Origin: an uncultured Clostridia bacterium
Lineage (GTDB): Bacteria > Bacillota > Clostridia > Oscillospirales > CAG-272
Reading direction: 5' to 3'
NCBI GenBank assembly: GCA_937892405.1
Contig: CALAFS010000242.1
Span: 1-44,928, forward strand
DNA: 44,928 bases
The position numbers and the translations under genes were made by a program. This document shows, piece after piece, positions 6,237 to 44,928 of this stretch. The notes below the pieces were generated by a model. The model made no database searches. It saw only the letters and a program-made list of their open reading frames with translations, and was not told where the DNA came from. Every line of letters starts with the position of its first letter. Position 1 is the stretch's first letter.

Positions 6237-6245
6237 GCCGTTCTC

Positions 6246-7337: not shown

Positions 7338-7349
7338 ATTCTCCTCCTG

Positions 7350-8039
7350 TCAAAGCGCCGCAAGACGCACATTGATGTTGTTGACAGCTTCCCACAGCCT
7401 GCGGATCGCGTCATCGATTGCCCCACCCTTGGTGTAACCTCTCGCTTTTTCTGCCTCTTCAGCCAAATACTGAATCGGGTAAAGTGCTCTCTCGATGACA
7501 TTGAGCTGCATCCCTTCCGTCGGAACCTTTGCCGCAGATTGAGAAAGAATTTCTCCGTCCTCATTCTTGAGTTCTACCCGTGCCGTCAGAGTCGCAGGGT
7601 CAATGCAAAGTGTCACCGAATACATAGCCAACGCAACCAAAGACTCACGGATAGATGAGATCATCTCCGCAAGGTAATCAAACGCTCCTTGCGGATCGGC
7701 ACTCACTCCCGGCTCTGTGGCAATGGAAAGATGCTTTATGATGTCTCCCGAAAAAATGTAGTCGATGACATCCTTCAGCGTCATCTTCCCCGTATAGTTC
7801 TCGGGAACCTTAATCATCTCTATCGCTTCGTCCGAAGAAAGAGATGTTCGTATTCTATTAACCTGCTTTGCGAGCAGGATCGCCAAGCCGTCAAACCATA
7901 ATTTCAGTTCCTCGGCGGAAAGCCCGGCGACGCCGTAAGTGCTTGCCTTATTCGGTCGATCGGCAAGCGCTCCGACGCCTTTCGCCCGCAGGTTTTCGTC
8001 TGTAATCTCATCACAGACATGCTTTATTTCTTCGCTCAT
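7350..8039 (-). CDS. Virion (tail/fibre-associated) structural protein
   Basis: The 229-aa ORF lies between the 872-aa structural protein and the fibres. Its N-terminal motif GVGALADRPNKASTYGVAGLSAEELKLWFD is typical of phage appendage proteins; this is a recollection, not a search result. Confidence 0.5.
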   Translation of the reverse strand: MSEEIKHVCDEITDENLRAKGVGALADRPNKASTYGVAGLSAEELKLWFDGLAILLAKQVNRIRTSLSSDEAIEMIKVPENYTGKMTLKDVIDYIFSGDIIKHLSIATEPGVSADPQGAFDYLAEMISSIRESLVALAMYSVTLCIDPATLTARVELKNEDGEILSQSAAKVPTEGMQLNVIERALYPIQYLAEEAEKARGYTKGGAIDDAIRRLWEAVNNINVRLAAL

Positions 8040-8048
8040 GACAATCTC

Positions 8049-20500: not shown

Positions 20501-23500
20501 AAAGCAATTTTTGCCGCATCTGTGCCAGTATTTTTTGCAGATGGGTTGACATCCGAGGCTTTTTCGGATATAATATCAGTAGTGGAGTTTCTGCCGTTCG
20601 TTTCGGGCGTTCCTGCAAAGGCATTTGCATTTGCTGACGGTGTATGACCTCCACTCTTTTCATTTATAATCCATGCACTCTTTAATGTAAGAGTGCCTTT
20701 TTTAGTAGAGGTAATAGCAATTGCGATGTTTTTTCCGTCAAGAGTCTTCTCAAAGCGTAGTGCAGTACCAGTCGAATCGCTTACAAGTTTGACATCAGCG
20801 GGAGAAATAACCGTCTCAAGTATATTTTTGATATTGACATCATTAACGGCTTTTTGCCCTCTCGGCGTTTCTATCGTCTCGTTACCATGTGAATTATATA
20901 TGTGATAGATGAAATTACTCGCCAGCACAAAATCATAGTTTTTGATATCTATGCCCGTACTCGCTTTTACAAGATCCGCGGTTTTGTCACTGATAATACC
21001 GATATGTAAGCGGGAAAAGGATGTTTTTTTCCTTGAGTTTTCTATAAACTCTACGATTTCCTCATAATTGCGTGAAACATGATCCTTTCCGCTACTTTCA
21101 ATGTGTCTCACCCGTGTAGCATCATATTCTCCAAGTTCTTTCAATGCATTCGATAGTGCAAACCTTGCCCCGCTGCCGTAGGTAGCGTTCTGCTCGGAGA
21201 GTGTGTCGAAGAGCTTCTTGAATTGTTTCAAGTACCGTTTCGCTTCGGCACTCATCTTTTCGTCAAACGAATAATCCCGTGCTGCTCTTCGGAAGAAGGA
21301 CAGCACTCTTTCTTTTGTTGTCGGCTTTTCGGAAAGAATGTAGTCCCATATCTTCGGGTCGGAGGCGATCTCTTCGGCATAGGCAGACGCAACCTCGTCC
21401 TCCAACGCGTTTTTCTTTTCTTTGGCAGGGAGCTGATCGTAAACGCCAGAGTCCTCATACTGCTTAATCACTTTTCTCCGCTTCTCCGGATCTATGTTTT
21501 CCATAGCCTCGGCAATCAGCCGATTTCCGTTTTTCTGTCGGACGAGGATATGATCGAGTTCATGTATGAGCAACTTTCCACGCAAGCGTGTCTCCGATGA
21601 CCGAGGATTCAGATATATGACATTTCCGAGATTCATGCCGTCGCCGGGAAGATAGGGATGAAACATGACAATCAACCCCGAATGTGCCGCAAATCTCGCG
21701 GTCAGTGTTACGCTTTCTTCCGAGAGATTCGCCTCCATTGCCTGCCGGATTGTCATTCTTACCGCCTGCCTGTCGGGTGCATTCAGCTTTGTATACTCCG
21801 GAACATTCTTTTTCGCGAAGTCCTCAATGCGCTCTCTCATCTCGACGCTCGGCGTCTTTTTATCTCCGGCAACCTCAAGTCCGGCTTCTTCTCTCCAAGC
21901 GGTCAGGACTTTCTGCGCCTCCGAATATTTCATCGGGCGGGAAAGTCCTTTTTCGTTGTAATCGTAAAAGCGGTATTCTTTTCCCATCTGAAGAATTCCG
22001 AGATCCGTGTCCCCGATTCTGTACCGTCTGACGCCGTCCTGTGCGCGGTGTACCGACTTCGGAAGCGTGTGGCGGATATTTGCCTCCCCTACCGCAGAAA
22101 ATGCCTGTGTAGCGTTTTCTGCCGCCTTGTAGTAGTCCTCCCCCACGCTCTCACGGTATTTTCTTACCCGCTCGCGAAGAACATCGGAGGTTTCGGAAAG
22201 AAGATCCTGCACGCCGAGCGCCTCGGTAACTCTCTTCAACTGGTGCGGTTTTGCATTTTCAATATAGGTATTGAGCTGTTCCTGCGAAAACGCGGCATCT
22301 TCTCCTGCGAGAAGCGCATCGGTATACGCCTCCGTGTTCATAGTAAGGCGTTCGGTCGCTCGAAGAACGGTAAGTGTTCGGAGCTTCTGATTGGTTTTCA
22401 GCGCTTTGACAATGCTCTTTCTGTATGCCTGCGGCGAGGACATATCAACGCCGTCGAGAAGTTCTTCCGCAGTGATATGTATCTTCTCTCCCGAAGTGCT
22501 GTCGGAATAAAAGCGATTGATCGCATCGGCGACCCCCTCGGGATTGCTTAAAATATTCGTCGCTTCCTTCCAAAAATACGGCTGAAACGCAGCGACCGTA
22601 TTCGCGCGATCGAGATAACCGAGAAGCATCTTTTGCTTGACGGTCAGTGTGTCGGAGGGATGTGTCTCTACCGACGCTTTGAATTCGCGCAGAGCGCTGT
22701 CTACCGCGCGGAAAGCGTCAGATTCCGTCTTTACACTTGTCTCGGTGTTCGCAATCTGCTCGGAACGGGTGAGAATACGCTGTGTTTCCCCTCTGTTTTC
22801 GATGTTTGCACCGTGCACCACATTGGTTGCGGCATTGACTCCGCCGGCAACCCCCGACATAATCATGCCCGAAAGACCGCCGACAAGGGCGGAATAAGCA
22901 ATCTCCTGAAGAGAGGCATTTTCCGCGTTCGGATCATAGGTTGCGCGCTTGATATACGGTTCAAAAATAGCCGAGATAATTTCCTCTCCCGCTTCTCCCG
23001 CAAAACCCTTTGCCATTGTCTTGAAGATCCCCTCGTGGGCGATCGTTTTTACCGTATCCTTTCCGAAAATCCCTCTCGCCGCTTTTTTCGCGGCGCCGAA
23101 TCCGAGTCCGAAGACGGTATCGCTGAAGGTCTCTACTGTGCCTTCGAGAGCACCCGCCCCCGTTCCGTATGCCCATTCCTCCGCGCCGAGTTTCCCCGTC
23201 TCTCGGTAAGCGTCTTTCACCGAATTTCCTGCCGCGGAAAGTCCCGAGGTAAGAAAGGTGGTCGTTCCTGCAAGCGCCGCCTGCGCGACGGTACTCATGC
23301 CTCCCGTGGCAATTCCCACACCGACGCTTGCGGCAAGCCCGGGGACACTGTTTCCGATTCCCGCGGCTACATCTCCCGCAAGTTTCCACCCGTCATCGGG
23401 TACAAACCACGAGTCCGCGTGCGAATAATCGAACCAGTCATTCGTCATCAAAGATTCGGCGTATTTATGATTGCCTGTAAGTTCCGCAATACCGCCGACG

Positions 23501-23661
23501 GTATAATCAACCAGTCCTTCGAGCGCACCGGCAAAGCCAAGCCCCGCTTTTTCAAGCAGATAGCTGAGACCTGCCCAAACGCCGCCCTTATTCTGCTCGT
23601 CGATCGGCTTTGCAAGGCTCGTCGTGGCACCGTTTCCGATTCCTTTTACCGTTCCTGTCAT
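14521..23661 (-). CDS. Giant (3046 aa) virion-module polyvalent protein
   Basis: This single uninterrupted ORF is translationally coupled to the upstream gene (ATGA overlap). Recognisable parts are: a Gly/Ala-rich hydrophobic N-terminus; HELDH at 21550-21564; paired-His HIYNSHGN at 20881-20904; the ART-like motifs RVYHGS...GQGFYFT...GYDGYIVDNKYENSTVYVAF; coiled coils; and C-terminal TM helices at about 15640-15815. Confidence 0.8.
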   Translation of the reverse strand: MTGTVKGIGNGATTSLAKPIDEQNKGGVWAGLSYLLEKAGLGFAGALEGLVDYTVGGIAELTGNHKYAESLMTNDWFDYSHADSWFVPDDGWKLAGDVAAGIGNSVPGLAASVGVGIATGGMSTVAQAALAGTTTFLTSGLSAAGNSVKDAYRETGKLGAEEWAYGTGAGALEGTVETFSDTVFGLGFGAAKKAARGIFGKDTVKTIAHEGIFKTMAKGFAGEAGEEIISAIFEPYIKRATYDPNAENASLQEIAYSALVGGLSGMIMSGVAGGVNAATNVVHGANIENRGETQRILTRSEQIANTETSVKTESDAFRAVDSALREFKASVETHPSDTLTVKQKMLLGYLDRANTVAAFQPYFWKEATNILSNPEGVADAINRFYSDSTSGEKIHITAEELLDGVDMSSPQAYRKSIVKALKTNQKLRTLTVLRATERLTMNTEAYTDALLAGEDAAFSQEQLNTYIENAKPHQLKRVTEALGVQDLLSETSDVLRERVRKYRESVGEDYYKAAENATQAFSAVGEANIRHTLPKSVHRAQDGVRRYRIGDTDLGILQMGKEYRFYDYNEKGLSRPMKYSEAQKVLTAWREEAGLEVAGDKKTPSVEMRERIEDFAKKNVPEYTKLNAPDRQAVRMTIRQAMEANLSEESVTLTARFAAHSGLIVMFHPYLPGDGMNLGNVIYLNPRSSETRLRGKLLIHELDHILVRQKNGNRLIAEAMENIDPEKRRKVIKQYEDSGVYDQLPAKEKKNALEDEVASAYAEEIASDPKIWDYILSEKPTTKERVLSFFRRAARDYSFDEKMSAEAKRYLKQFKKLFDTLSEQNATYGSGARFALSNALKELGEYDATRVRHIESSGKDHVSRNYEEIVEFIENSRKKTSFSRLHIGIISDKTADLVKASTGIDIKNYDFVLASNFIYHIYNSHGNETIETPRGQKAVNDVNIKNILETVISPADVKLVSDSTGTALRFEKTLDGKNIAIAITSTKKGTLTLKSAWIINEKSGGHTPSANANAFAGTPETNGRNSTTDIISEKASDVNPSAKNTGTDAAKIAFNKNEEDPAHFILRLKSLEKAVPTYDRAESSANRISENSEKVNPFDEKNSESAPKTTKDARMALPDTDSEGKKLSDGQRKYFDGTKVVDANGNLLRVYHGSPAIFTEFSYRFMSTNGSAEGQGFYFTQNKEMAEGYSKEGGQLLDGYLSIKKPLSDSKVTLTRAEVKKLVQAIDPTGDDVIANFDSEGGMGYPSKAWYNRALTDTVNSCMDYCDSDSEILANIANSGAGAETVLLTTKRVLGYDGYIVDNKYENSTVYVAFTSEQFKSTSNKTPTVNPDIRFALSENSENASRYTYDALIAKKDMKVTALPKTVPTTEDGKIDRKAIVALGRMNARSQKNPHNTDTNVYVYVDDIGRDVLLSREGMQHGIARSKETALAVTRIGDVLKSSIAVNELNGSTTRKTEMSYVLLGACRDGENLYVVRSVVSRIENDVTEIDVYRLGAVKSKKTETPTPALGGTAVTEQSSLISSESPAISISDFLEKVKTLPLANEIFSQDVLQKLGIKRSVGTLSDSIRFALPEDGEFTFSEGEDGSLHVTRNYMSYADDPTHVRQATDISREKYYSKTELEASVNSMVDEVMQFNDEHSSLKGKLKGKTKSAVVNYLWQKFNKSASEADLQKSATDIADYIIENTMVEEIYNDARYTDNDIEHAEAALTVLRGFMHNMNLKALKGEIKYTYDDKANGVFLTWGKKEGGFTADVVAIELKESGLQIEVADSEAECFFNILDLYQRSKEILRDRVYSEKLKAFGSEAEIAALRDEIVKKILSIRELEGKKTKYGKLVEEYSEKVRTLKQKNEDTIHSLKQENAEKVRTLKQELRDERRIPPLENRVLKKVQGIKDWKSGVFQNATQYRPKILMQTVGKLSSIAANGNIRDGAVRKVMRDLYLWYSSEGTKNMLEGSGRYNSEIAGMLSSLAEDARIMTEAEESSLNEVISLYNKTGLSLEGLSRKDAMTTLRDFYTRKNIGDAYSAETKQFLSRMAKDTTLSAEELNRLGNVVDYFKHFVENFNRVFRDGKWQDVAPLAESMIHIAEKAKTANYGISYRAMRSKLLSSYRENFSEPMTVAKFADGYDQNGFFTTSIMAFREAEEKRSFIEHDLRQRLEDFYKKKENRKWLKRAQKETVIYNNETLTKREAAQLYMTFHRDIATAGLLLSGFEIRRDAETLTVRPIAESNLTAEQAETLTKKCIAELKSQFSASDLEFISIAEEIYKDCRELKRATDMLRNGYSNVTEGYYVPVVRIGAAKSFDSDFFGEGVSVNRQSFNKSTVKGAKAKLVISPIDEVLSRHIEGISRYAAFGSVLDTIDMIWNYDISGNPNNPTSMRTTAEKSWRGGEKYLTKLKQDCKGIGRDGKLPIVQKLIGKYATAVLALNPKVLASQLSSLLASTSILDVTSLIRGATISSKDVDVYCKLAQVRNYDKTAYRAQAVTDKIGSIGEVLMEPIGKVDRFVVKKLFGACQVQIQKEGGAKIGTVENKQAAGKLLERVILETQQNAYATERSEAMRSGNDFLRLTTLFSADSMKVFDRILDSWGEWRVLTAKLKAESDPRVRAELQAGIKKASKSFKKATFALASSAVYMALIAEFFRWFFGQKDEDENLASNLILGTIGNLFGGLPLIKDVMSFMMDGYEMSAPTYDMINNAMNATKAAAVVMPKIIDGTAEKQEAAKATRDFLYAASQMLGVPLKNAYKLVYGVTSKVSARAGYVLDDLFYQQNYRKDLVKAIENEDDDMTDLLLSMISRDSVGVDAGTELKNTTGTLLKTWNRETTEDGEENPGNSTSKTMKSLLKAGQNPLPKSIGNKISYDGDEYELSGENKALFRKIYGQSADVLERLVTKPAFLTLNAAEQTKAIRYVYDTYYQQATETVLDTEKDIRTVAAKMTDVGTLALVNAKISSFEADKNKNGTVVSGTKKKKVLRYIASLGLPVGEALFLLYLNGYSVKDGELRGMSETAAKKKLLRYIQSSTELSAEERVIAAEACGFTVKGGKVLVSAS

Positions 23662-34034: not shown

Positions 34035-35040
34035 GCTTGCCTCCGAATTCCGCTTTGATGTTCTCTGCGAGAGCACAAAGTGCCGAATCGAGTTTTGCCG
34101 CCGTCTCCGTATCCCTCTCCCTGATCTCGCACAAAGATGTTTTCATCTTCCGCAAGATCTCCTGTACCGTATCAAAATATGTTTTGAAGGTCGTGATTGC
34201 CGGGTTCGCGGTTTTCAGAAGTTTCGTGCTTTCATTCAGTTTTTCTCTCGCCTCTTTTGCCTCATTCTCCGCAAGCACCCGGCGCAGTTCTGCCTCTTCT
34301 GCCGCCTTTTTTGCCGCCTCTGCTTCTTTTTGCGTATTCATAATCATGTTGGCGAGTTCTTTTTTGATCCGCGCTTCGGCTTCTCTCTCCGTCTTTTCCC
34401 GAAGTTCTTTCGCCGCCCCCGATGAAAGCTTTGCCGGCTTCTTTTTCTCTTCGGCAAGCCTTGCCTCGAGATCTTTGACTTTTGCTTCCAGGGAGACCGC
34501 TTCATTCGCACGCTTCTCCGCTTCTTTTGCCGCAGCCTCGGCGCGTTCTGCTGCGTCCTCTGCATCTGCTCTGCGCTTCCGCTCCTGTTCCGCCGCGGCT
34601 ATGGCATCGTTTCTTTCCTTAATTGCCGCCTTCAATTCCGATACCGAAAGATTTTCCGCGTCAACCGATTCCGCAAACGCTTCCCTCTCCTCGCTCGGGA
34701 CAGCGAGAAGTTGCAAAGCCTTTGTATACGGCAAATTCGCAATCGATTGTGAATTTGTTGTTGCTCCGAAAATGGTAATCTGTGCCGCACCGTATTCATC
34801 AAAGAGTCTCATAAAGTTGTTTGCCGTTGACTGCGAAAACTCCACTTCATTCTTCAGCCAATTTCCCCACTCACCGTGCGGCAATACTTCTTTTGCTTCC
34901 ACCAGTCTGCGCCCGATCTCTATCGCATACATGAGCGCCATCGTCTGTGCCTGTCGGCAAAGCTCCCTGACCTCCGCGGTAATTACGCCAATTTCACGCG
35001 CCGGCACGCCCGATCTCATTTCCTGTACTTTGTTTTCCAT
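34027..35040 (-). CDS. DUF3102-like protein with long Ala/Glu/Lys coiled coil
   Basis: The N-terminal motif YAIEIGRRLVEAKEVLPHGEWGNWLKNEVEFSQSTANNFMRL supports the call. The start is uncertain (35040 or 35019). The gene contains the 24-nt palindromic repeat. Confidence 0.6.
   Translation of the reverse strand: MENKVQEMRSGVPAREIGVITAEVRELCRQAQTMALMYAIEIGRRLVEAKEVLPHGEWGNWLKNEVEFSQSTANNFMRLFDEYGAAQITIFGATTNSQSIANLPYTKALQLLAVPSEEREAFAESVDAENLSVSELKAAIKERNDAIAAAEQERKRRADAEDAAERAEAAAKEAEKRANEAVSLEAKVKDLEARLAEEKKKPAKLSSGAAKELREKTEREAEARIKKELANMIMNTQKEAEAAKKAAEEAELRRVLAENEAKEAREKLNESTKLLKTANPAITTFKTYFDTVQEILRKMKTSLCEIRERDTETAAKLDSALCALAENIKAEFGGKHG
34733..34756. repeat. 24-nt exact copy of the palindromic element AAATTCGCAATCGATTGTGAATTT
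   Basis: The sequence is identical to 14466-14489. It lies inside the DUF3102-like coding sequence and encodes TNSQSIANL. Confidence 0.85.
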
Positions 35041-36703
35041 TTTCTTTCCCTTTCTTTGCCTGAATATATGCAAGCCATTTTTCTTCAAACTGAATCACAT
35101 CGTCACTGCGAGCACAATTGCGCAAGCCCCTGTTCTGCACTACACAACCATTCTTGTATTCCAAAGTAAAATACGGAGTATCCCGTGCCGAAATTTTCCG
35201 AATGAAAAGAATACAGGTGTTCCCTCTCGCACAATCATCTCCGTAGGAAGCCACGCAATGATGCAGTGTCGCTCCTTCTTTCGTCAACTCCTCTTGTGAA
35301 GTACACGGGCGGATACAAAGCCCGAGCTCTGCGTCTTCATAGGTGAGATATTCGTTCTTTTCTGCGTTGGCAAGAATCTTTTTCGCTTTTTCTTCACTTT
35401 CTTTCGCTTTATAGATCTTCACCGCGCGATCATGCGCCACGGTCAGATCATTCGGGTACACCACATCAGACGGCAGGGCGTCCCCGTGGATTTCTTTCGC
35501 CATATTCAGATAGTCGCGGAAAGTAAGATAAGAAATATTTCTATTTCTCTTTTCCTGCCTCAAAAGGTAGTTTATTGTCCTGACCGCCGGAAGCGAAATT
35601 CCCTCTCCGTCTGCCCACTTGAAAAGGTCAAGCACGCCGGAATACGATCGTTTGAGCAATTCTCTCGTGAGCTTTACCTTTCGGGTGCTGTAAATATATC
35701 GGTACAGACTCACCTTTTTTAACGGCAACGCCCGAATGAGCGCAAGATCACACTTTTCGACCGACAGCATCTCATGCGGTTTTGCCTTTTTCGGGTTGAA
35801 ATACTCTTTGAAATTGCTGATGTAGAATTTGCTGTATGAAAAATAGTAAGATCCACTCGTATGGACGCTCGCTTCGATTGCGTCTTTAATATACACCGAA
35901 AATCCGTTCCTTACAAGGTTTTCGATATTCGGGTACTTACACCACGCGTCCATATATGAGAAGATATCTACCGGCGTCCCTGCGTTATCTACAAAAACAT
36001 CGAGAGCGCTATGCCCGGTACCCGTCTCTTCAAGGATATTCCATTCTTTTCCTTGACACAAAATGTGTTCCCGCTTCCATCTGCCATATCCGTAAAATCT
36101 CTTCACCTCTTTCCATTGATTGAAAAAAGATTTATGATAATAACAATTCGACCACCCTCCGACAAATTTCCGAACGCCGTCAATGTATATGGCACCGAGA
36201 CCCCGTGTTGTCCGATAAGCAATCTCCCCCTCTTTGTTTACGATCTTTTGTGTATCCCATGTAAGAATGGCAAGATGTGATCTGACATTGTGAAAGGTGA
36301 CATAATTGCAACTGTCAATCCCTGCCCCTTCAGAAGAGATTTCGGAACAGTGCAAAGCGGTTACAGGTTTTCCGCAACTCGGGCATTGAACAGCGTCTCT
36401 TGTATATACGGGGGTGCCGAGCAACGGATCTATGTAGCCGACGAGACTTGCTCGACGATAGCAACCTTTTTCACAGTCCGCTGCCCGCTCAAAGACGGTT
36501 TCTATACCGCAAGCGGTGCATCTTCCAATCACCTTGTCTGCTTGTCTTTTCGTTCCGTTTGTGATTGCAGTGCCGCAGCGGAAAATCATGCAATTCTCTT
36601 GCTTCATTTTTCGGACAGCGAATTCTACGGCAGTTTTTGGCGGTTCTTGCGGCAGTTCGTCAATCGTCCGTGCGAATTCTTCCTTGTCTTTTCTCTTCGC
36701 CAT
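34994..36703 (-). CDS. PcfJ-like protein
   Basis: The protein is 569 aa from ATG 36703. It has an N-terminal Zn-ribbon-like pair of Cys motifs. The C-terminal motif EGATLHHCVASYGDDCARGNTCILFIRK...PYFTLEY is typical of the PcfJ domain. Confidence 0.6.
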   Translation of the reverse strand: MAKRKDKEEFARTIDELPQEPPKTAVEFAVRKMKQENCMIFRCGTAITNGTKRQADKVIGRCTACGIETVFERAADCEKGCYRRASLVGYIDPLLGTPVYTRDAVQCPSCGKPVTALHCSEISSEGAGIDSCNYVTFHNVRSHLAILTWDTQKIVNKEGEIAYRTTRGLGAIYIDGVRKFVGGWSNCYYHKSFFNQWKEVKRFYGYGRWKREHILCQGKEWNILEETGTGHSALDVFVDNAGTPVDIFSYMDAWCKYPNIENLVRNGFSVYIKDAIEASVHTSGSYYFSYSKFYISNFKEYFNPKKAKPHEMLSVEKCDLALIRALPLKKVSLYRYIYSTRKVKLTRELLKRSYSGVLDLFKWADGEGISLPAVRTINYLLRQEKRNRNISYLTFRDYLNMAKEIHGDALPSDVVYPNDLTVAHDRAVKIYKAKESEEKAKKILANAEKNEYLTYEDAELGLCIRPCTSQEELTKEGATLHHCVASYGDDCARGNTCILFIRKISARDTPYFTLEYKNGCVVQNRGLRNCARSDDVIQFEEKWLAYIQAKKGKENGKQSTGNEIGRAGA

Positions 36704-36713
36704 GGCTTCCGCC

Positions 36714-37073
36714 TCAAAGGAAAGAGGAAAGATCGAGGTAGTCGGATTTTGTTTCGGTCGTTGTCTCCCGCATCTCACTCGGCTCGGGTAATCCATAAAA
36801 TTCACACAGAATCTTCTCGGCAATCTTTGATGAAACACAAGCGTAATTTTTACCGTTGCGATGCGCGTCCGCATAGTCGCGGATTTTCTTCTCCGCTTCC
36901 CTGATGTGCATTTCCGGCACCGCAAGATCGGTCACGAGAAGTTCGGCGGATCTCGGGTCTCTTTCGGCAATTTCCTTGAGTTGTTCTCCGACAAAAAAAG
37001 CGGGCGAAGTCTCGGAAAGCTCTTTTTGTTGTTCTTCGATGATCTTCGCCGCGCGAATTGCTATTTCATTCAT
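36714..37073 (-). CDS. PcfK-like protein (family that includes AcrIIA9-type Cas9 inhibitors)
   Basis: The 119-aa ORF has a GAGGGAG RBS. It lies directly upstream of the PcfJ-like gene, as in pcfK-pcfJ pairs. The motif is KKIRDYADAHRNGKNYACVSSKIAEKILCEFYGL. Confidence 0.5.
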   Translation of the reverse strand: MNEIAIRAAKIIEEQQKELSETSPAFFVGEQLKEIAERDPRSAELLVTDLAVPEMHIREAEKKIRDYADAHRNGKNYACVSSKIAEKILCEFYGLPEPSEMRETTTETKSDYLDLSSFL

Positions 37074-38331: not shown

Positions 38332-38520
38332 TTAAGCCTCTTTCACTTGCGGTTCCTGTACATCTTCCTTCTTTTTCTCCTCTAAAGTAAAGGTGACAAG
38401 AATCCCTCTCGCCTCATAGATGCGCGCGAGCGTGTCAAACAGTTTGTTAAGGTCGAGCTTGTTTTCCCGCTTCTCTGTGTTCTCTTCCGCAGGTAACGCT
38501 TCCCTCTGTCGTGATGTCAT
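38332..38520 (-). CDS. Small early protein; its C-terminus is paralogous to the ORF at 41211..41333
   Basis: This 62-aa ORF is the second gene of the early operon. LDLNKLFDTLARIYEARGILVTFTLEEKKKED aligns with MDIIKLLKALIQIYDKRGIELIFQVKKKGEDD. Confidence 0.55.
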   Translation of the reverse strand: MTSRQREALPAEENTEKRENKLDLNKLFDTLARIYEARGILVTFTLEEKKKEDVQEPQVKEA

Positions 38521-38569
38521 TGTGGATTCCTTTCTTTTTGTTGTGACTTTGTAATCAGCACTTGAAATG

Positions 38570-38583
38570 TCTTTTTAAGACAC
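38570..38583. promoter_or_regulatory. Operator-like site TCTTTTTAAGACAC (copy 1, at the 3' end of the cro-like gene)
   Basis: The 14-nt sequence is identical to 38817-38830. It contains the inverted repeat GTCTT-N3-AAGAC. Confidence 0.5.
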
Positions 38584-38793
38584 TTCACGATAAAAAAAGA
38601 TTTCATCAATTTCATAAGCCGAAAGTGAGTATCGCTGTTTGATCTTTTCAATTTCGCTTTGCTTGAACTCTTTTCCGTTAGTTTCGTTCTTTTTTGCGGA
38701 AAAAGTCTGTGGAGAAATGCCAAGTGCTTTTGCAAGTGAATTGTTAGTATCGCCGAAAGCCTTCATTTTGCTCTCCAATAATCTTTTGTTCAT
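38575..38793 (-). CDS. Cro-like HTH regulator
   Basis: The 72-aa protein has the HTH segment NNSLAKALGISPQTFSAKK. It is divergent from the CI-like gene and is the first gene of the minus-strand early operon. Confidence 0.7.
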   Translation of the reverse strand: MNKRLLESKMKAFGDTNNSLAKALGISPQTFSAKKNETNGKEFKQSEIEKIKQRYSLSAYEIDEIFFYREVS

Positions 38794-38816
38794 TTTAGTC
38801 TCCTTTCAATTGAGTA

Positions 38817-38830
38817 TCTTTTTAAGACAC
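38817..38830. promoter_or_regulatory. Operator-like site TCTTTTTAAGACAC (copy 2, immediately downstream of the early promoter -10)
   Basis: This is an exact copy of 38570-38583. It lies between the TATAGT -10 and the cro-like RBS. Confidence 0.55.
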
Positions 38831-38834
38831 ATTA

Positions 38835-38863
38835 ACTATAACATTGTTTTTGCTTCTTGTCAA
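38835..38863 (-). promoter_or_regulatory. Early (PR-like) promoter
   Basis: The minus strand reads TTGACA (38858-38863), a 17-nt spacer, then TATAGT (38835-38840). An AAAGGAGA RBS and the cro-like ATG follow. Confidence 0.7.
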
Positions 38864-38902
38864 GGCACTTTTCAAAAAAAGTTTCTTTTTTTTCAAAAAA
38901 AC

Positions 38903-38931
38903 TTGCTTTTTAGGAAACATTATGCTATCAT
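38903..38931 (+). promoter_or_regulatory. Repressor (PRM-like) promoter
   Basis: TTGCTT (38903-38908), a 17-nt spacer ending in TGC, then TATCAT (38926-38931). The RBS TAGGAGGT is at 38941-38948. Two TTTTCAAAAAAA repeats at 38870-38901 lie just upstream. Confidence 0.6.
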
Positions 38932-38954
38932 TAAATTAAATAGGAGGTAACACT

Positions 38955-39344
38955 ATGAATGATATGGGCGCAATTATCAAACGCTTAAGACTCCAAAAGG
39001 GTCTTACACAAGAAGAGCTCGGAGAAATTATCGGCGTTCAAAAGTCTGCTATCCGTAAGTATGAGAGCGGCATGGTTCAAAACATGAAAAGAAGCTCCAT
39101 AAAAAAACTGGCAGACTTCTTTGAAGTTACTCCTTCTTATCTTTTGGGATATGAAGTAGGAGATGACGCCGAATTAACACTCACCCCACACGAAAAGTCC
39201 GTTATCATCGCCTACCGCAACAATCCGAGTATGCAAGGCGCCGTAGACAAGCTCCTCGGCGTAGAAGAGGACGGTATCGACTTGGGGGAAGACATGGCAA
39301 ACACCCTCAGAGGGGCATTGAGAAAAAAGTCCGTCTCAAAATAA
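38955..39344 (+). CDS. CI-like XRE-family HTH repressor (no S24 peptidase domain)
   Basis: The motif LRLQKGLTQEELGEIIGVQKSAIRKYESG supports the call. The protein is 129 aa and is divergent from the cro-like gene. Confidence 0.8.
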   Translation: MNDMGAIIKRLRLQKGLTQEELGEIIGVQKSAIRKYESGMVQNMKRSSIKKLADFFEVTPSYLLGYEVGDDAELTLTPHEKSVIIAYRNNPSMQGAVDKLLGVEEDGIDLGEDMANTLRGALRKKSVSK

Positions 39345-39373
39345 CGATTCTCCTCCCTCTCAACAGAATCGTT
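39343..39373 (+). terminator. Possible terminator hairpin after the repressor gene
   Basis: AACGATTCT, a 13-nt loop, then AGAATCGTT. Only a weak T-tract (TTACATCTT) follows. Confidence 0.3.
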
Positions 39374-39407
39374 TACATCTTCACGATCTATTACATAAAG
39401 AGTTAAA

Positions 39408-39758
39408 ATGCCTTTAGAACACGCGGTAATAAAAATGAACGAATTAGCAATGAGAATTAAATCTGCGATTGAAAATTCGGGGCTTTCACAAAGAGAAATT
39501 GAAATAAAAACCGGAATTCCTCACTCTGCCATTCAGCGCTACGCTTCTGGCAATACCGAAAAAGTTCCAATCAAGCGAGTGGAGGCTATTGCAAAAGCAA
39601 CTGGGACAACAGCGGAATACTTGCTCGGTTGGGACGATCAAAAAAGAAACTCTGCGGATCATTCGGCGGAATTCCTTAATTTGTTTCAACAATTGTCGGA
39701 AGAACAGCAATTTTTGATCATCTCACAAATTAAAGGAATTCTATCAAATTATAAGTAA
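39408..39758 (+). CDS. Second XRE-family HTH protein
   Basis: The motif is SGLSQREIEIKTGIPHSAIQRYASG. The protein is 116 aa and lies 32 nt upstream of the nuclease gene. Confidence 0.75.
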   Translation: MPLEHAVIKMNELAMRIKSAIENSGLSQREIEIKTGIPHSAIQRYASGNTEKVPIKRVEAIAKATGTTAEYLLGWDDQKRNSADHSAEFLNLFQQLSEEQQFLIISQIKGILSNYK

Positions 39759-39790
39759 GTATAATCAAGACACTAAAAGGATGGTGTTCC

Positions 39791-41119
39791 ATGGATTCAA
39801 GCGTATTATGTATAGTCATTTTTGTTGGCATCCTATTTTTATTAGGTTTCATTGCGTGGCTTTTGGATTCTTTTGCAAACCTCACCGAGAGCAAGAAAAA
39901 ATTCCGTCAATTATTGGAAAACGAAAACAAGACAAAAGAATTAAGTGAACGCCTAAACAAGAGAGAACAAGAATTCGAGACAGAATCCACGCAAAAATCT
40001 AATGAATTAACTCGCAGATCTAAAGAATTAGCCCAAAAATCCGATAAACTTGATAAAGAAATTGCACATTATAATGCACTTATCAGCGGGAACGACAAGG
40101 TAATTGAAGAAAAGTGCGCGTCCTATAAAAACAAGCTGGAGAATGATATTGCATACTATAACTCTCTTATCACAGGATTCGATAAAGTGATCGAGCAAAA
40201 ATGCGCATATTACCCGCAGCTCGCGGCTATTGTGGCAGATATCGAAACTGTTTTTTATGAGCGTTCCGCTCAATACTTGGAAACAAAAAAGACCCCCGCA
40301 AAAGTCGAGGCATCACGAATCCGAGAACTCCGCCGACAAACACGAAGAATTTTAGCCGAAAAGAAAGCGTCCGACTACCGACTCGAATATATCAAAACCA
40401 TGTTTCCTAATATTGAAGACATCTTCGATAATGACTTCGCCGCACCCGAAGATTTCGAATTGGAAACGGACGAAACGACCGACAGAACACGCAATTTTCT
40501 TTCTCACGAAGAATACGCTTCCCTCTCCACTACGGAACGCAATCAGCTTGCTCTCGACCGATACCTTGAATCAAGAAAATCGAAATGGCAAGTCGGGCGC
40601 GACTATGAGCTGTATATCGGTTATCAATACGAGTGCCACGGCTACACTGTCAAATACACAGGAATCATAGAAAACTTTGAGGATATGGGAAGAGACCTGA
40701 TCGCGCAAAAAGGAAATAAGGTTCTCATTATACAGTGTAAAAACTGGTCGCAGGAAAAGACCATTCATGAAAAACATATCTTTCAGTTATTCGGCACTCT
40801 CATTCTTTATCAGCTTGAAAACCCGACCCTAAAATCTTCTGCTCTGTTCGTGACTACGACAAGCCTTTCGGAGAAAGCGAAAGGAATCGCGAAGCATTTG
40901 AATATATCCGTAAGAGAAAATATCGCCCTATGCGATTTTCCGAGGATCAAGTGCAATATCAATCGTCAAAGCGGAGAAAAAATCTATCACTTGCCCTTCG
41001 ACCAACAATACGACACCGTAGTGATTGAAAAAGACAAAGGCGAGTTTATGGCATTCACTGTCGCAGAAGCGGAAAATGCCGGGTTCCGCCGTGCCTTCAA
41101 GCACTTCGCGTCGCAGTAA
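39791..41119 (+). CDS. Membrane-anchored coiled-coil protein with a Mrr-type PD-(D/E)xK nuclease domain
   Basis: The N-terminal TM helix is VLCIVIFVGILFLLGFIAWLL. About 200 aa of coiled coil follow, with an internal duplication. The nuclease core is GRDYELYIG...EDMGRDLIAQKGNKVLIIQCKNW. The C-terminal module is SGEKIYHLPFDQQY...FTVAEAENAGFRRA. Confidence 0.7.
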   Translation: MDSSVLCIVIFVGILFLLGFIAWLLDSFANLTESKKKFRQLLENENKTKELSERLNKREQEFETESTQKSNELTRRSKELAQKSDKLDKEIAHYNALISGNDKVIEEKCASYKNKLENDIAYYNSLITGFDKVIEQKCAYYPQLAAIVADIETVFYERSAQYLETKKTPAKVEASRIRELRRQTRRILAEKKASDYRLEYIKTMFPNIEDIFDNDFAAPEDFELETDETTDRTRNFLSHEEYASLSTTERNQLALDRYLESRKSKWQVGRDYELYIGYQYECHGYTVKYTGIIENFEDMGRDLIAQKGNKVLIIQCKNWSQEKTIHEKHIFQLFGTLILYQLENPTLKSSALFVTTTSLSEKAKGIAKHLNISVRENIALCDFPRIKCNINRQSGEKIYHLPFDQQYDTVVIEKDKGEFMAFTVAEAENAGFRRAFKHFASQ

Positions 41120-41210: not shown

Positions 41211-41333
41211 CTACCCGCGAACCACGACGAAAGCATCGTCGTCTTCCCCCTTCTTTTTTACTTGAAAGATGAGTTCTATCCCTCTCTTATCGTAAATTTG
41301 AATCAGCGCTTTCAACAGTTTGATAATATCCAT
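41211..41333 (-). CDS. 40-aa ORF next to and divergent from the integrase gene
   Basis: This ORF is below the ORF-track cutoff. A strong RBS GGGAGGAAAT precedes ATG 41333, and a terminator lies downstream. The sequence is MDIIKLLKALIQIYDKRGIELIFQVKKKGEDDDAFVVVRG. It is paralogous to the C-terminus of 38332..38520. Confidence 0.45.
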   Translation of the reverse strand: MDIIKLLKALIQIYDKRGIELIFQVKKKGEDDDAFVVVRG

Positions 41334-41348
41334 ATTTCCTCCCTGTCA

Positions 41349-41373
41349 ATATGTATTTCTATGTCATACATAT
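41349..41373. promoter_or_regulatory. Inverted repeat between the small ORF and the integrase gene
   Basis: ATATGTAT (41349-41356), a 9-nt spacer, then ATACATAT (41366-41373). Confidence 0.4.
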
Positions 41374-41416
41374 GAGGCAAAGCGAATAAAATATACCGTA
41401 AGACAAAAGAAAGGAA

Positions 41417-42799
41417 GTGGTTTGCATAAAAAACGCAAACGAAGCAAGACAAGTCCGAGAGATACCGAAGATTGTCGGCGGATACATTCGTGTATCGACC
41501 GAAGAGCAATCGCGCAACGGACTCTCCCTTGAATCTCAAAGAGCGGATATTGAAGACTACTGCCGCCGCATGGGATACCGACTCGAAAAATACTACATAG
41601 ACGCCGGTATCACCGCACGGAAATCTCTTTACAAACGCTTCGCCTTCATGAATATGATGCGCGATGTGCAGGAAAAGAAAATCAACCATATCGTTGTGCT
41701 TCGTCTCGACCGTTTCTTCCGCAATGTGTATGACTATCACCGAATGATGCATGAGCACCTCGATCCTGCCGGGTGCGGTTGGTCTGCCGTCAAGGAAGAG
41801 TACGACACCACGACGACAAACGGACGCCTGATGATCAACCTCCGTCTCTCCATCGCGGAGCAGGAGTGCGATCAGGACTCCGACAGAATCAAGGATGTTT
41901 TCGCGAACCGGATCAAAGAAGGCTATGTCGTGACCGGTCACCCGCCCCTCGGATATAAGATAGAGAACAAGCGTCTCGTCCCGGACGAGAACGCCGACCT
42001 CGTGCGGGAGATCTTCGACTCCTTCCTCCGTTTGAATTCCATTCGCCTCGTTCTTCTCGATCTGCGTGAGAGGTTGCATGTGGACATGAAGTACGACCGC
42101 ATCAACGGTACGCTTCGGAAAGAAATCTACATCGGTCATAACAGAGACAACAAGAATTATTGTGAGCCGCTCGTCTCGGAGGAAACATTCAACGCCGTGC
42201 AGCGCGGACTTGACAACAACATCCGAGCAAGGGGCACAAGAAAGGTCTATATCTTCTCGAGACTGATAAAGTGCGCCTGTTGCGGGCACTCCATGGCGGG
42301 CAGCTCCCCGAACGCGTATAAGAATTGCAACCCGTTTATGTACTACCGGTGCAATTTCGCCTACCAAAACCTGACTTGCAATAACCGCCACAACACCAAC
42401 GAAGCCGTCGTCGAAAAGTTTCTTCTTGAAAATGTCGAGACTCTGCTTGAAGAACGAATTGTGAAAGTAGCGGCAAAAGAAAAATCTGCTCCTGCTCCTC
42501 GCAAAGGAAACAGAAAGCAGATCGAGGCGAAAATCGAGCGACTCATGGAATTGTATATCAATAAAGTCATCGAGCTCGACGAGTTCAAAAAAAGGAGAGA
42601 AGAGCTTGAAGCGAAGATTATTGACGATGAGGTAGAACCAAAGAAGACCGATCTGACCGCCGTGAAAGCCTTCCTCGACAGCGGATTCAAAGAAATATAC
42701 GGCGGTCTTTCTCCACTTGAAAAGCGTGCCCTTTGGCGAGGCATCATCAAAGAGATCATCTGTGAAGGAAGCGAAGTCAAGCAGGTTGTTTTTTTGTAG
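41417..42799 (+). CDS. int: Large serine recombinase (phage integrase)
   Basis: The N-terminal resolvase-type catalytic region is GGYIRVSTEEQSRNGLSLESQ...VVLRLDRFFRN. A recombinase domain, a Cys-rich Zn-ribbon (CACCGH...YYRCN...C) and a coiled coil follow. The only in-frame canonical start is GTG 41417. Confidence 0.9.
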   Translation: MVCIKNANEARQVREIPKIVGGYIRVSTEEQSRNGLSLESQRADIEDYCRRMGYRLEKYYIDAGITARKSLYKRFAFMNMMRDVQEKKINHIVVLRLDRFFRNVYDYHRMMHEHLDPAGCGWSAVKEEYDTTTTNGRLMINLRLSIAEQECDQDSDRIKDVFANRIKEGYVVTGHPPLGYKIENKRLVPDENADLVREIFDSFLRLNSIRLVLLDLRERLHVDMKYDRINGTLRKEIYIGHNRDNKNYCEPLVSEETFNAVQRGLDNNIRARGTRKVYIFSRLIKCACCGHSMAGSSPNAYKNCNPFMYYRCNFAYQNLTCNNRHNTNEAVVEKFLLENVETLLEERIVKVAAKEKSAPAPRKGNRKQIEAKIERLMELYINKVIELDEFKKRREELEAKIIDDEVEPKKTDLTAVKAFLDSGFKEIYGGLSPLEKRALWRGIIKEIICEGSEVKQVVFL

Positions 42800-42805
42800 C
42801 ACGAT

Positions 42806-42814
42806 TTCTACTAA
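42806..42814. repeat. attP-arm inverted repeat, left arm (TTCTACTAA)
   Basis: This is the reverse complement of 2260-2268. It lies 10 bp from the core. Confidence 0.65.
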
Positions 42815-42824
42815 CTCGTGTATG

Positions 42825-42832
42825 CCTTCCGG
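42825..42832. other. attR core (CCTTCCGG)
   Basis: The sequence is identical to 2242-2249. It encodes the PEG of the ATPase PEGLP motif on the minus strand. Confidence 0.75.
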
Positions 42833-43705
42833 GACGGCGACTACGACCACGGTAATCATCAGGGTAAGGGCGTGAATCAGGGTGGAAAAGACAAGGGTCG
42901 GGTCGCGGAAGGAGGCGAGGATCTTCGCACCGACGAAACCGTTGTCGGCGACGAAACGGTTGAAAAGATAGGTCAGCGCGACGAACGCCGCCATGACATA
43001 CCCGATCTTACTGATCTGTCCGGCGAGGCGGGCAAGGCGGAGCTTCAGCGGGCTTTCCCGCGTTTCGCTCTGGACATCTTTTGCCACCATGCCGTAATAG
43101 GTGCTGCCGCCGACGCGTCCGACCTTCATCTCCCCTTCGCCGGAGGTGACGACCGCGCCGCGGTAGACCTTCGTCGGCTCGTGAAGATCCCAGCGCTCGG
43201 TCGGCGCGCCCGGGTGTTTCTCCGCGTCGGCGCTCTCGCCGTTCAGCGCGGAGAGGTCGAGGCGCACGCTCCCCGAGAGCATCGTGCCGTCCGCCGGCAC
43301 CTGCTCTCCGGCGGAGAGCAGGACAATGTCCCCGACGACAAGCTCAGAAATCGGGAGGCGGGTCACTTCCCCGTCCCGCACGGCGAGACAAAAAGCGCCT
43401 TCCCCTGCCGCCTGCATATCGGCGAAGGCGCGCTCGCTCCCATACTCCGACGCGGTGGAAACCGTCGTCGCGATCAGGACGGCGAGCAGAATCCCCCCGA
43501 CCTCGAACCAGTTACACCGCCCGAGAGTGAATACCACTTCGGCGAGCAGTGCGAACATCAATACCTTGATGATCGGGTCGCCGAGATTTTCAAAGAATTT
43601 ATGAAGAAAGCCCTTGGTTTTCTCTCTTGCCAGTGTGTTGTCCCCGTGCGCCTCGCGCGACAGACGCACTTCTTCTTCCGTCAGACCGCGTCTTGTTTTT
43701 TTCAT
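42825..43705 (-). CDS. P-type cation ATPase, N-terminal part of the prophage-split gene
   Basis: ATG 43705 has an AAGGAG RBS. The protein begins MKKTRRGLTEEEVRLSREAHGDNTL (cation-ATPase N-terminal domain). It continues through TM1-2, an actuator-type region (LSALNGESADAEK) and TM3-4, ending ...MITVVVVAVPEG at the core. The ORF-track ORF runs on to 41312 only through the antisense of int. Confidence 0.88.
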
Positions 43706-43844
43706 CGGATTCTCCTTTTGGTAGCTGTCGAAGAAAGACAGCCTCTTTTCCTTCTGAAAAACTATATGAGAGCGCGTCCCGAAAAATGCGTACAAGCGTC
43801 CGCAAATGTTTGCCGCGGTGTCTTGATTGTTGCGGTTTGAAAAG

Positions 43845-44690
43845 AATATGCGTAAAGAGCGGAAATTCCCCGAAAAAGCGTGTGGCGGAAGGTATGGCGT
43901 AACGGGTCGTCGAGGGCGCCGACCCCTACAAAGGAAGAGAGCGTTTTCACCTTAATTGTTCGTTTATCGAAAGGTGGCGTAAAGGGCGGGCGACCGATGG
44001 TCACCCCTACGACGGAAGCGGACGAAAGTGGCTCGAAAAAGCGTTCGCGAAGGCATGACATATTGCCTTGCCGAGAAAGAGATGATCGCGTCATGTAGGG
44101 GTCGGCGCCCTCGACGACCCGCCGCGCAAAGGTATCATTATACGCCATCGGGAGGGTGTTTCGCCGTCATTTTGCCCGTAGGGGCGACCATCGGTCGCCC
44201 GCTTTGGTGAGTCTATATGAACGGTATCGGCTTTTTGCCGGGGTGCCTCATGGATAAGGAGAGTGAAAGTTGCGTTGCATGGAAGATGATAGTGCAAAGT
44301 ACAATCCCTCCGTCTCGCTTCGCGAGCCATCCTCCCGGTACTTCGGCGCGCCGAAGTACAAACACAAAGGAGGCTTTGGCATGAAGGTTTGCCGTTGTGT
44401 CTCGATTTTTGCCGTGTAGTAAAATATGCGTTCGCAGGCGGGCGACCGATGGTCGCCCCTACGAATGAGCGGACAAAAACGGCTCGAAAAAGCGTGTGAT
44501 AAAGGCTTGGCACAACGGGTCGTCGAGGGCGCCGACCCCTACAAGGGGAGCGGGCGGAAATGCCTCAAAAAAGCGCGTGGTGAAAGGTACCCCCGCAGTG
44601 AAATCCGCCTGCGGCGGGGGAAAAGCGCTACGCGCGTGAAAGGAGACAAAGGCATGTGAAATTCGCCTGCGGCGAGAGAAAGAGTTGCTA
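43845..44690. repeat. Mosaic REP-like intergenic repeat block (right flank of the ATPase locus)
   Basis: 43845-44045 parallels 95-295. 44332-44690 parallels 1-445 with an internal deletion. Hairpin units lie at 43904-43925, 43988-44006, 44098-44120, 44182-44200, 44440-44458 and 44517-44539. The palindrome lies at 44338-44359. Confidence 0.85.
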
Positions 44691-44928
44691 CAAAGGGAGG
44701 AAGCACGAGAGTCTTTTTTGCATTTTGCGGCGCTTTACTTATAGAATATCGCTGAATATGCAAAAATCGTCAAAATGTTGACTGGAATTGCCTATTTTTT
44801 TAGATAGCAATTATGCTATAATAGGAAGCGTAAGAGAGGGTTCGGTTTGTCTCATTTCACAAAATGTTGTCGGGAAAGGTATAAATTTCCTGACACGGGG
44901 ACAAAGAAAAAAAGAGCCGCAAAAATCC

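Follow-up and report, generated by a model that had tools for sequence, protein, structure and literature searches.

The window analyzed here (the whole stretch of DNA, 44,928 nucleotides [nt] from an uncultured Clostridia bacterium, contig CALAFS010000242.1) contains a complete prophage of ~40 kb, and our subject is a gene in the prophage lysogeny module that is predicted to encode a membrane-anchored nuclease of 442 amino acids (aa). The gene lies downstream of repressor-type genes and upstream of the gene for a serine integrase, all on the plus strand (Table 1). An earlier note, made by reading the DNA of the window, had drawn attention to two open reading frames (ORFs) at this place, one for a 116-aa XRE-type helix-turn-helix (HTH) protein, here called XRE116, and one for the 442-aa protein, and both are present, the former with an HTH_3 domain. 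The note divided the 442-aa protein into an N-terminal transmembrane (TM) helix, about 200 aa of coiled coil with an internal duplication, a PD-(D/E)xK core like that of Mrr, and a C-terminal module that it likened to the small DNA-binding tails of some nucleases; all of these parts were recovered, with a correction to the extent of the coiled coil that is given below.

Table 1. Coordinates of the nuclease gene, its parts, and the neighboring genes in the window
Feature	Position	Strand	Basis
Nuclease ORF, 442 aa, predicted membrane-anchored coiled-coil Mrr-type	39791-41119	+	ORF, Pfam, AlphaFold2, Foldseek, family size
N-terminal single TM helix, residues ~4-25	39800-39865	+	Hydropathy, conservation
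Variable coiled-coil stalk, residues ~26-133	39866-40189	+	AlphaFold2 helix, periodicity
25-aa tandem duplication, residues 88-112 and 117-141	40052-40126, 40139-40213	+	Protein alignment
Conserved helical domain, residues ~134-265	40190-40585	+	55% mean pairwise identity; AlphaFold2 helices at residues 154-282
Mrr-type PD-(D/E)xK core, residues ~266-375	40586-40915	+	Pfam, Foldseek, invariant residues
Catalytic codons E273, D302, Q315, K317	40607-40609, 40694-40696, 40733-40735, 40739-40741	+	
C-terminal tail (PRIKCNI...GEKIYHLPFDQQY...EAENAGFRRA), residues 376-442	40916-41116	+	Near-invariant in family
XRE116 HTH gene, 116 aa, probable start M10 at 39435	39408-39758	+	HTH_3 E 1.7e-7; RstR-like, phrog_8
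Second XRE HTH gene, 129 aa, divergent from cro-like gene	38955-39344	+	HTH_3 E 5.5e-14
Cro-like HTH gene, 72 aa	38575-38793	-	Weak DUF739 and HTH_26 matches
Large serine recombinase (integrase), prophage right end	41417-42799	+	Pfam Resolvase E 1.9e-27, Recombinase, Zn_ribbon_recom
P-type cation ATPase, N-terminal half	42806-43795	-	Cation_ATPase_N and E1-E2_ATPase
P-type cation ATPase, C-terminal half	507-2240	-	Hydrolase and Cation_ATPase_C

Architecture of the nuclease

Pfam comparison matched residues 269 to 372 of the 442-aa protein to Mrr_cat (PF04471) at an E value of 1.1e-9, above the gathering score, and to Mrr_cat_2 at 2.1e-6. Across 66 diverse homologs, E273, D302, and Q315 were invariant and K317 was present in at least 90%, a pattern that, as read from the alignment, corresponds to the D...QxK signature of Mrr-type enzymes. 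An AlphaFold2 model, for which a 66-sequence alignment served as input, had a mean predicted local distance difference test (pLDDT) score of 87.7, and when the model was compared with the PDB by Foldseek, the top ranks were occupied exclusively by PD-(D/E)xK nucleases: the MspJI nuclease domain (4e-5), AF1548 (2e-4), and EndoMS/NucS (1e-3), followed by Cdn1, AspBHI, Card1, Can2, and Hjc. Profile and Foldseek searches, which the earlier note had proposed as a check, therefore both found a nuclease fold. Sequence queries against the PDB, made with the 442-aa protein by itself and with a family profile, returned nothing significant and no solved relative. We conclude that, on the evidence of sequence and predicted structure, the 442-aa protein is a nuclease.

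No family in PADLOC-DB v2.0.0 was matched by the nuclease at E ≤ 0.1, including Shedu and the other PD-(D/E)xK defense nucleases. Readings as Shedu, as a NERD protein, as a toxin-antitoxin system, or as a cyclic-oligonucleotide-based antiphage signaling system (CBASS) with CapH were dropped, as the nuclease gave them no PADLOC or Pfam support and the capH match of XRE116, described below, is generic.

The nuclease begins with a strongly hydrophobic TM segment (hydropathy, 2.99), and a TM helix was found at the N terminus of 112 of 120 homologs. The stretch that precedes the helix averages 2.3 residues and is free of lysine and arginine in 96% of homologs, and the 15 residues that follow it carry a mean of 3.7 lysines or arginines (120 homologs). 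By the positive-inside rule, these flanks predict that the anchor is oriented N-out/C-in, with the nuclease in the cytoplasm.

The AlphaFold2 model placed residues 3 to 152 in a single unbroken helix, and the stalk that follows the TM segment had a hydrophobic periodicity of 3.55 residues, with an observed power that was matched by none of 500 shuffles. The coiled coil of the earlier note stands and is heptad-periodic, but the length of about 200 aa given for it merged a variable stalk of ~110 to 125 aa with a separate, highly conserved helical domain. Within the stalk, the duplication of ~25 aa was missed by repeat finding at the DNA level, as the copies have diverged to 68% nucleotide identity (51 of 75 nt), and was confirmed at the protein level, with 16 of 25 aa identical and an alignment score of 93 versus 21.7 ± 3.9 for shuffles. 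The first copy sits in alignment columns that are gapped in most homologs, and the duplication is therefore specific to this lineage.

Family-wide comparison divided the nuclease into a changeable and a fixed part. The N-terminal region, from the first methionine to the conserved module, had a median length of 142 aa (range, 56 to 415) and a mean pairwise identity of 19%. The conserved C-terminal module measured 298 to 305 aa in every sequence, and its identity rose from the helical domain (Table 1) through the nuclease core (65%) to the tail (70%). The stalk has been remodeled repeatedly (P0002, P0017, and P0019/P0025/P0028), and material has been added to the N-terminal part in several ways: the homolog P0002 of a sister prophage (L001, positions 8001 to 9710) has 127 extra residues through an internal duplication, long forms carry a SWIM zinc finger (CxCxnCxH; e.g., CPCKDFELHHKPCKH) within the coiled coil, and in P0017 the first part of the conserved helical domain is repeated near the N terminus. 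We conclude that the stalk gains and loses material readily.

The helical domain between stalk and core belongs to no database family, and it had no Pfam match even at E ≤ 10. Its conserved basic residues include K166, R176, R234, R257, and K263, and it is a candidate DNA-binding or sensor domain.

The C-terminal tail

No part of the nuclease is more conserved than the tail, which is invariant, or nearly so, throughout the family. No Pfam family was found for it. Tail residues 386 to 435 resembled the NCBIfam "sunset" domain NF051437 (E 2.7e-5) with a score of 24.1 bits against a curated cutoff of 27 bits, and the same stretch was matched by phrog_21287 at 2.5e-5. Nothing relevant on a "sunset domain" turned up in the literature. 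Foldseek comparison of the separately modeled tail gave nothing significant, the top TM-score being that of N-Ada bound to DNA (1u8b; TMq 0.43, E 5.5). A distant tail relative with four tandem copies, P0121, weakly matched Pfam Ada_Zn_binding (E 9e-4). Ada, too, has the motif [FY]-x-x-x-x-EA-x-x-AG[FW]R in its N-terminal domain, which is a pointer to binding of the DNA backbone and not a result. The tail thus shows a weak, below-cutoff likeness to the sunset domain, and a relationship with the zinc-binding fold of Ada is a hint.

When the 67-aa tail was used as a query by itself, it found 1,234 cluster representatives at 50% identity, 708 of them at E ≤ 1e-10. In nearly all of the tail-bearing representatives, the tail was C-terminal in a protein of the same nuclease family.

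The upstream XRE gene

XRE116 and the nuclease are encoded on the same strand, 32 nt apart, and the earlier note took them for a two-gene cassette in which XRE116 would be a dedicated regulator or antitoxin-like partner. The sister prophage L001, of metagenomic origin, occupies the same ATPase site and encodes a nuclease 91% identical to the 442-aa protein. The block of XRE and nuclease genes is shared by the two prophages at 92% DNA identity, and the region upstream has been swapped: homology is interrupted at window positions 38543 to 39402 (L001 positions 7217 to 7613), with flanks that are 88 to 96% identical. The interrupted region contains unrelated cro genes, and in the window it adds the 129-aa XRE gene, such that two repressor-type genes stand in tandem. 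In L001, a single plus-strand HTH gene precedes the nuclease gene. This HTH gene is the one that faces the Cro-like gene directly, and its 107-aa product is 100% identical to residues 10 to 116 of XRE116. As the identical gene holds the repressor position alone in L001, XRE116 reads as a phage repressor that was retained, or doubled up, after an immunity-region swap. The 129-aa XRE protein is likely the resident CI-type repressor of the swapped-in immunity region.

Neighborhoods across the family pointed the same way. At 70 species-representative loci, the gene upstream of the nuclease encoded an HTH protein in 21 cases (10 of them fused to a LexA-like S24 peptidase), ImmA/IrrE in 5, a small zinc-ribbon protein in 8, and an unrelated product in the rest. 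Clustering of neighbors yielded only three recurrent classes, namely, repressor-type HTH proteins, integrases, and ImmA, and XRE116-like proteins were upstream at 2 of 78 loci. XRE116 did match the PADLOC family capH (E 3.9e-12), but the 129-aa XRE protein matched it equally well (E 9.4e-11), and the match is therefore generic. The cassette with its dedicated XRE partner was thus not upheld, and we conclude from these gene neighborhoods that no partner is conserved and that the nuclease gene is a stand-alone gene.

The small zinc-ribbon protein (8 of the 70 upstream neighbors; e.g., at L063, L077, L088, L089, and L090) is ~100 to 155 aa long and is encoded immediately upstream of the nuclease homolog in Patescibacteria and a few further phyla. 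It starts with a TM helix and ends in a topoisomerase-type C4 zinc ribbon (Pfam Zn_ribbon_Top1), and it is a candidate for a DNA-binding partner that is anchored in the membrane and restricted to certain lineages.

Family size, spread, and genomic slot

A word-indexed search returned more than 5,800 protein matches, a set that may include other Mrr_cat proteins; the best were 50 to 70% identical over the C-terminal 70 to 100% of the query, and the closest relatives were named "restriction endonuclease" at most. The family comprised about 1,200 clusters at 50% identity. Two family-specific peptide motifs located 467 loci in 185,579 species-representative genomes, in phyla that include Bacillota (mainly Oscillospiraceae and relatives), Melainabacteria, Patescibacteria, Chloroflexota, Planctomycetota, Verrucomicrobiota, Bacteroidota, and Pseudomonadota, together with one archaeal metagenome-assembled genome. 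Identity between phyla was 40 to 50%, which, over so many phyla, is as expected of a mobile defense gene. In IMG/VR, 148 viral contigs carried a family member; DNA and protein searches of 50,697 GenBank phage records found none, and a plasmid search gave only four matches, from Hymenobacter and annotated "restriction endonuclease." No paper describing the family, or an Mrr-type membrane defense nuclease, was found in the literature. We conclude that the family is large and unnamed.

The place of the gene between repressor and integrase, in which the earlier note had recognized a lysogeny-module slot used by prophages for immunity genes that the lysogen expresses, recurred in many unrelated prophages. 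In six of seven metagenomic contexts, a cro-like gene on the other strand was followed by a repressor (alone or accompanied by ImmA or a small ORF), the nuclease, and an integrase. Among these six, the integrase is of the serine or the tyrosine type, the repressor is a small XRE or a LexA-like protein, and the replication modules differ. In a sample of 80 IMG/VR loci, a repressor or ImmA was encoded at most three genes upstream in 50 and an integrase at most three genes downstream in 25, with another 10 contigs ending too soon, and one or both of these neighbors were present in 57. Relatives of the integrase of the window were only three and distant, and they are therefore uninformative on whether the slot is a cargo hotspot.

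Among species-representative loci, 39 of 78 were prophage-like. The other 39 had housekeeping neighbors mixed with AbiH (twice), PDC-S05, PDC-S13, PbeA, a DpnI-type enzyme, and parts of type I and type II restriction-modification systems. For the copies outside prophages, the signal from these scattered defense genes is modest, not strong.

The seventh metagenomic context (L009) is chromosomal and contains a long-form homolog. Beside it, an unrelated second Mrr_cat protein of 330 aa is encoded with a DUF6472 gene (L009 positions 5697 to 6902), and L009 may be a small nuclease cluster outside a prophage. In BFVD, A0A8S5PK52, A0A8S5QLE7, A0A8S5URS9, and other proteins of uncultured "Siphoviridae sp. 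ct..." phages, 228 to 330 aa long and annotated "restriction endonuclease," aligned to the nuclease model over 250 to 300 columns (E 3e-7 to 1e-4). These shorter proteins look like a long helix joined to an Mrr core and may be tail-less relatives.

Prophage and neighboring genes

The minus strand of the prophage encodes the large terminase, the portal, a tail protein, and the replication initiator. A P-type cation ATPase gene is split by the prophage, and the serine integrase therefore targets the ATPase gene. A long minus-strand ORF at 41312 to 43795 is partly an artifact, as it reads through the integrase gene on the opposite strand. The lysogeny module has the lower G+C content that the earlier note had seen as A+T richness: 0.356 for the cro-like gene, 0.387 for XRE116, and 0.417 for the nuclease, versus 0.496 for the integrase and 0.493 for the rest of the prophage. 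Together, the drop in G+C and the mosaic breakpoints relative to L001 make a separate acquisition of the nuclease region plausible. A near-consensus promoter-like site, with 11 of 12 matches and a TG motif, lies by the cro-like gene at 38863 to 38835. In a scan for promoters and terminators, sites were no more frequent than in shuffles, and operon structure was not established by the scan. Rfam matched no RNA family within 38.3 to 44.9 kb.

Other parts of the window gave further observations. A giant ORF of 3,046 aa (14521 to 23661, minus strand), which immediately follows the portal gene and a 574-aa ORF, encodes an ART-PolyVal domain (residues 1142 to 1328, E 8.8e-22) and a PBECR3 domain (residues 889 to 1002, E 2.8e-10). 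Its product is a polyvalent protein, a type believed to work against the defenses of the host once packaged and injected. A 643-aa protein of the early region (34994 to 36925, minus strand) has a C-terminal PcfJ-like domain (E 1.7e-31; phrog_8470). Two small minus-strand ORFs, of 40 aa at 41211 to 41333 and of 62 aa at 38332 to 38520, are paralogous (12 of 32 residues identical, E 4e-7). The 40-aa ORF lies between the nuclease and the integrase, is found in the same place in L001, and is followed on its own strand by a G+C-rich hairpin and T-run at 41169 to 41150. The host flank (43850 to 44700) contains several copies of G+C-rich palindromic repeats in both orientations, including CGGGTCGTCGAGGGCGCCGACCCCTACA at 43903 to 43930, with a perfect inverted copy at 44094 to 44121, and GCGGGCGACCGATGGTCGCCCCTACG, which is present three times. 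No Rfam family matched the flank repeats, which look like repetitive extragenic palindromic (REP) or miniature inverted-repeat transposable element (MITE)-type elements.

A possible role in defense of the lysogen

The layout of the nuclease is that of SNIPE (PD-lambda-1; Saxton et al., Nature 2026, PMC13190303). In SNIPE, one polypeptide passes the membrane once, by an N-out TM helix, and comprises a hypervariable N-terminal region, a DUF4041 domain that binds DNA as well as the tape measure protein, and, at the C terminus, a conserved nuclease of the GIY-YIG type. SNIPE is constitutively located at the membrane and cuts lambda DNA during injection; its defense is direct, not abortive, it leaves induction of a resident prophage unimpaired, and a form deleted for the TM helix is a toxin that attacks the nucleoid (PMC13190303). 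The earlier note had suggested that tethering to the inner side of the membrane would position a nuclease to cut entering DNA. This is a reasonable idea, and the mechanism has since been shown for SNIPE (PMC13190303).

By analogy with SNIPE, the prophage-carried nuclease may well protect the lysogen by cutting the DNA of superinfecting phages at the membrane during injection, a reading that we favor tentatively. The nuclease gene lies downstream of the repressor and is read in the same direction, and the lysogen would therefore produce both proteins. The nuclease has no dedicated partner. The single TM helix would anchor the protein N-out/C-in in the cytoplasmic membrane, and the coiled-coil stalk, which probably dimerizes the protein, would serve as an adaptor from which the fixed module of ~300 aa (helical domain, Mrr core, and tail) would hang into the cytoplasm. 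Tethering would limit access of the nuclease to the nucleoid and to the resident prophage, and injected DNA, crossing the membrane within reach, would be cut. The stalk and the domains inserted in it would set which entry machineries are recognized, and the helical domain, with its conserved basic residues, would hold the DNA together with the tail. Cutting at the injection site, as in SNIPE, would suit a prophage-borne gene because the nucleoid and resident prophages would be spared.

Several points weigh against protection by cutting at the membrane. The functional claims made here for the family come from sequence and a structural model, and the analogy with SNIPE is one of architecture, as DUF4041, GIY-YIG, and PADLOC matches are lacking. 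Expression in the lysogen is read from gene order and strand, and the promoter scan did no better than chance. The tail and the helical domain are putative DNA binders. The topology follows from the positive-inside rule, and distant relatives of the tail, such as P0121, are found in apparently surface-exposed proteins. Moreover, about half of the species-representative loci are not prophage-like, with many housekeeping neighbors, and the long form at L009 is plainly chromosomal.

The same layout could serve abortive infection (Abi), in which a nuclease held inactive at the membrane would be released or activated by infection, through envelope perturbation or a phage protein, and would degrade host and phage DNA alike, killing the infected lysogen before progeny are made. 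Abi systems are frequent in lysogeny modules and at the ends of prophages, AbiH is adjacent to the nuclease at two loci, the closest structural relatives include the signal-activated, indiscriminate nucleases Cdn1, Card1, and Can2, and the toxicity of SNIPE without its TM helix shows that a tethered nuclease is a latent toxin. The nuclease gene stands alone, however, with no sensor or signaling partner and no ligand-binding domain, and SNIPE, the sole characterized protein of the same layout, gives direct defense. We consider abortive infection unlikely.

Likewise unlikely is that the nuclease acts as a solitary type IV-like, modification-dependent enzyme of the Mrr/MspJI kind, in which the tail or the helical domain would read modified or foreign DNA and the anchor would be secondary, e.g., for dosage or localization. 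Consistent with such an enzyme, both Mrr_cat and Mrr_cat_2 were matched, the best PDB folds were the nuclease domains of the modification-dependent MspJI and AspBHI, relatives are annotated "restriction endonuclease," and no cognate methyltransferase was found near the nuclease in the contexts examined, as expected of type IV. The weak link of the tail to the zinc-binding domain of Ada, a DNA-backbone contactor, would fit as well. No known modification-reader domain was detected, and the near-universal TM anchor and the hypervariable stalk would be left unexplained. A type IV-like substrate preference is compatible with a membrane-tethered nuclease that cuts incoming DNA, and the two could coexist.

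A role in the life cycle of the phage or in the host, such as chromosome degradation or DNA processing at induction, or membrane-associated handling of cellular DNA, would account for the loci outside prophages with housekeeping neighbors, for the small TM protein with a topoisomerase-type zinc ribbon that recurs upstream in the candidate phyla radiation (CPR) and other phyla, and for the chromosomal long form of L009. Such a role is improbable, given that the phage copies are on the strand of repressor and integrase, opposite the early lytic genes, that absence from GenBank phage records argues for a gene dispensable for phage growth in general, and that the distribution of the family, patchy among species genomes and highly similar between distant phyla, points to horizontal transfer and not to a housekeeping pattern. 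Finally, a partnership with XRE116, despite the close spacing of the two genes, their joint retention in L001, and the capH match, is very improbable, as the L001 gene is the sole occupant of the repressor position facing cro, the capH match is generic, and the upstream gene across the family may be any repressor, ImmA, a small ORF, or something unrelated.

Returning to cutting at the membrane, a possible but more speculative extension is that membrane tethering of nucleases evolved at least twice and that the family is a PD-(D/E)xK counterpart of SNIPE built from nonhomologous parts, a single-gene superinfection-exclusion weapon that temperate phages of gut Clostridia, and mobile elements in many other phyla, would carry in the repressor-integrase slot. 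The hypervariable stalk, with its SWIM insertions and recurrent duplications, would tune recognition of injection machineries, and the helical domain and tail would hold incoming DNA. If so, the principle of SNIPE, in which location and not sequence or modification separates self from nonself, would be a general strategy reached by convergence and not a single case, and location-based immunity would extend to Gram-positive gut anaerobes and to competition between prophages and phages. A large family annotated at best as "restriction endonuclease" would acquire a function, and the repressor-integrase slot of Clostridia prophages would become a place to mine for defense genes. The nuclease would also be a compact single-gene system for engineering phage resistance, and its fixed module of 300 aa, with a novel helical domain and an Ada-like tail without zinc, would offer new DNA-handling domains. 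The principle itself is already established by SNIPE; what would be new is a version made of unrelated parts in a prophage slot.

Comparison with known systems

The earlier note knew of no named system with this architecture, a statement now outdated, as SNIPE shares the layout, with domains that are not homologous. Like SNIPE, the 442-aa nuclease joins in one polypeptide an N-terminal, single-pass TM helix, predicted to be N-out, and a body predicted to be cytoplasmic. Both have an elongated helical N-terminal region that is hypervariable in sequence and length, followed by a middle domain and a conserved C-terminal nuclease, and both are encoded by stand-alone genes that are widespread across phyla. 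Unlike SNIPE, the nuclease has no DUF4041 match (Pfam; whole protein at E ≤ 0.1 and residues 134 to 270 at E ≤ 10), and its catalytic domain is of the Mrr-type PD-(D/E)xK and not the GIY-YIG kind, with no sequence or profile similarity and no PADLOC match. In addition, the 442-aa family has the invariant C-terminal tail and typically sits in the repressor-integrase slot of Clostridia prophages. The SNIPE paper makes no mention of PD-(D/E)xK or Mrr versions (PMC13190303). We conclude that the nuclease, judged by its predicted domains, is an architectural analog of SNIPE and not a homolog or member.

With Mrr/MspJI-type (type IV) enzymes, the nuclease shares the core fold, the D...QxK motif, the solitary state without a methyltransferase, and its best Pfam and PDB matches. 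It differs from them in that no Mrr_N winged helix, SRA, or similar reader domain was matched in Pfam or NCBIfam; in place of a reader, it has the TM anchor, the coiled coil, the novel helical domain, and the sunset-like tail.

Superinfection-exclusion proteins of Gram-positive prophages, of the type of Ltp of TP-J34 and Sie2009, are encoded in the lysogeny module and tethered to the membrane; they are small, nonenzymatic, outward-facing membrane proteins or lipoproteins that act, or are proposed to act, at DNA entry (PMC3952083). Similarly, the 442-aa gene lies in the lysogeny module on the strand of repressor and integrase, and its product is predicted to be membrane tethered and is proposed to act at the same step. 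Unlike those proteins, it is predicted to be a nuclease that faces the cytoplasm, and it has no PHROG or Pfam similarity to Sie or Ltp families.

Zorya and Kiwa are multigene systems in which membrane-embedded sensors or motors with long intracellular helices work with DNA-targeting effectors (PMC12904381). The nuclease proposed here shares with them the concept of spatial discrimination between self and nonself at the membrane and the long intracellular helical structures; unlike in Zorya and Kiwa, to which it has no homology, all of its parts are joined in one polypeptide.

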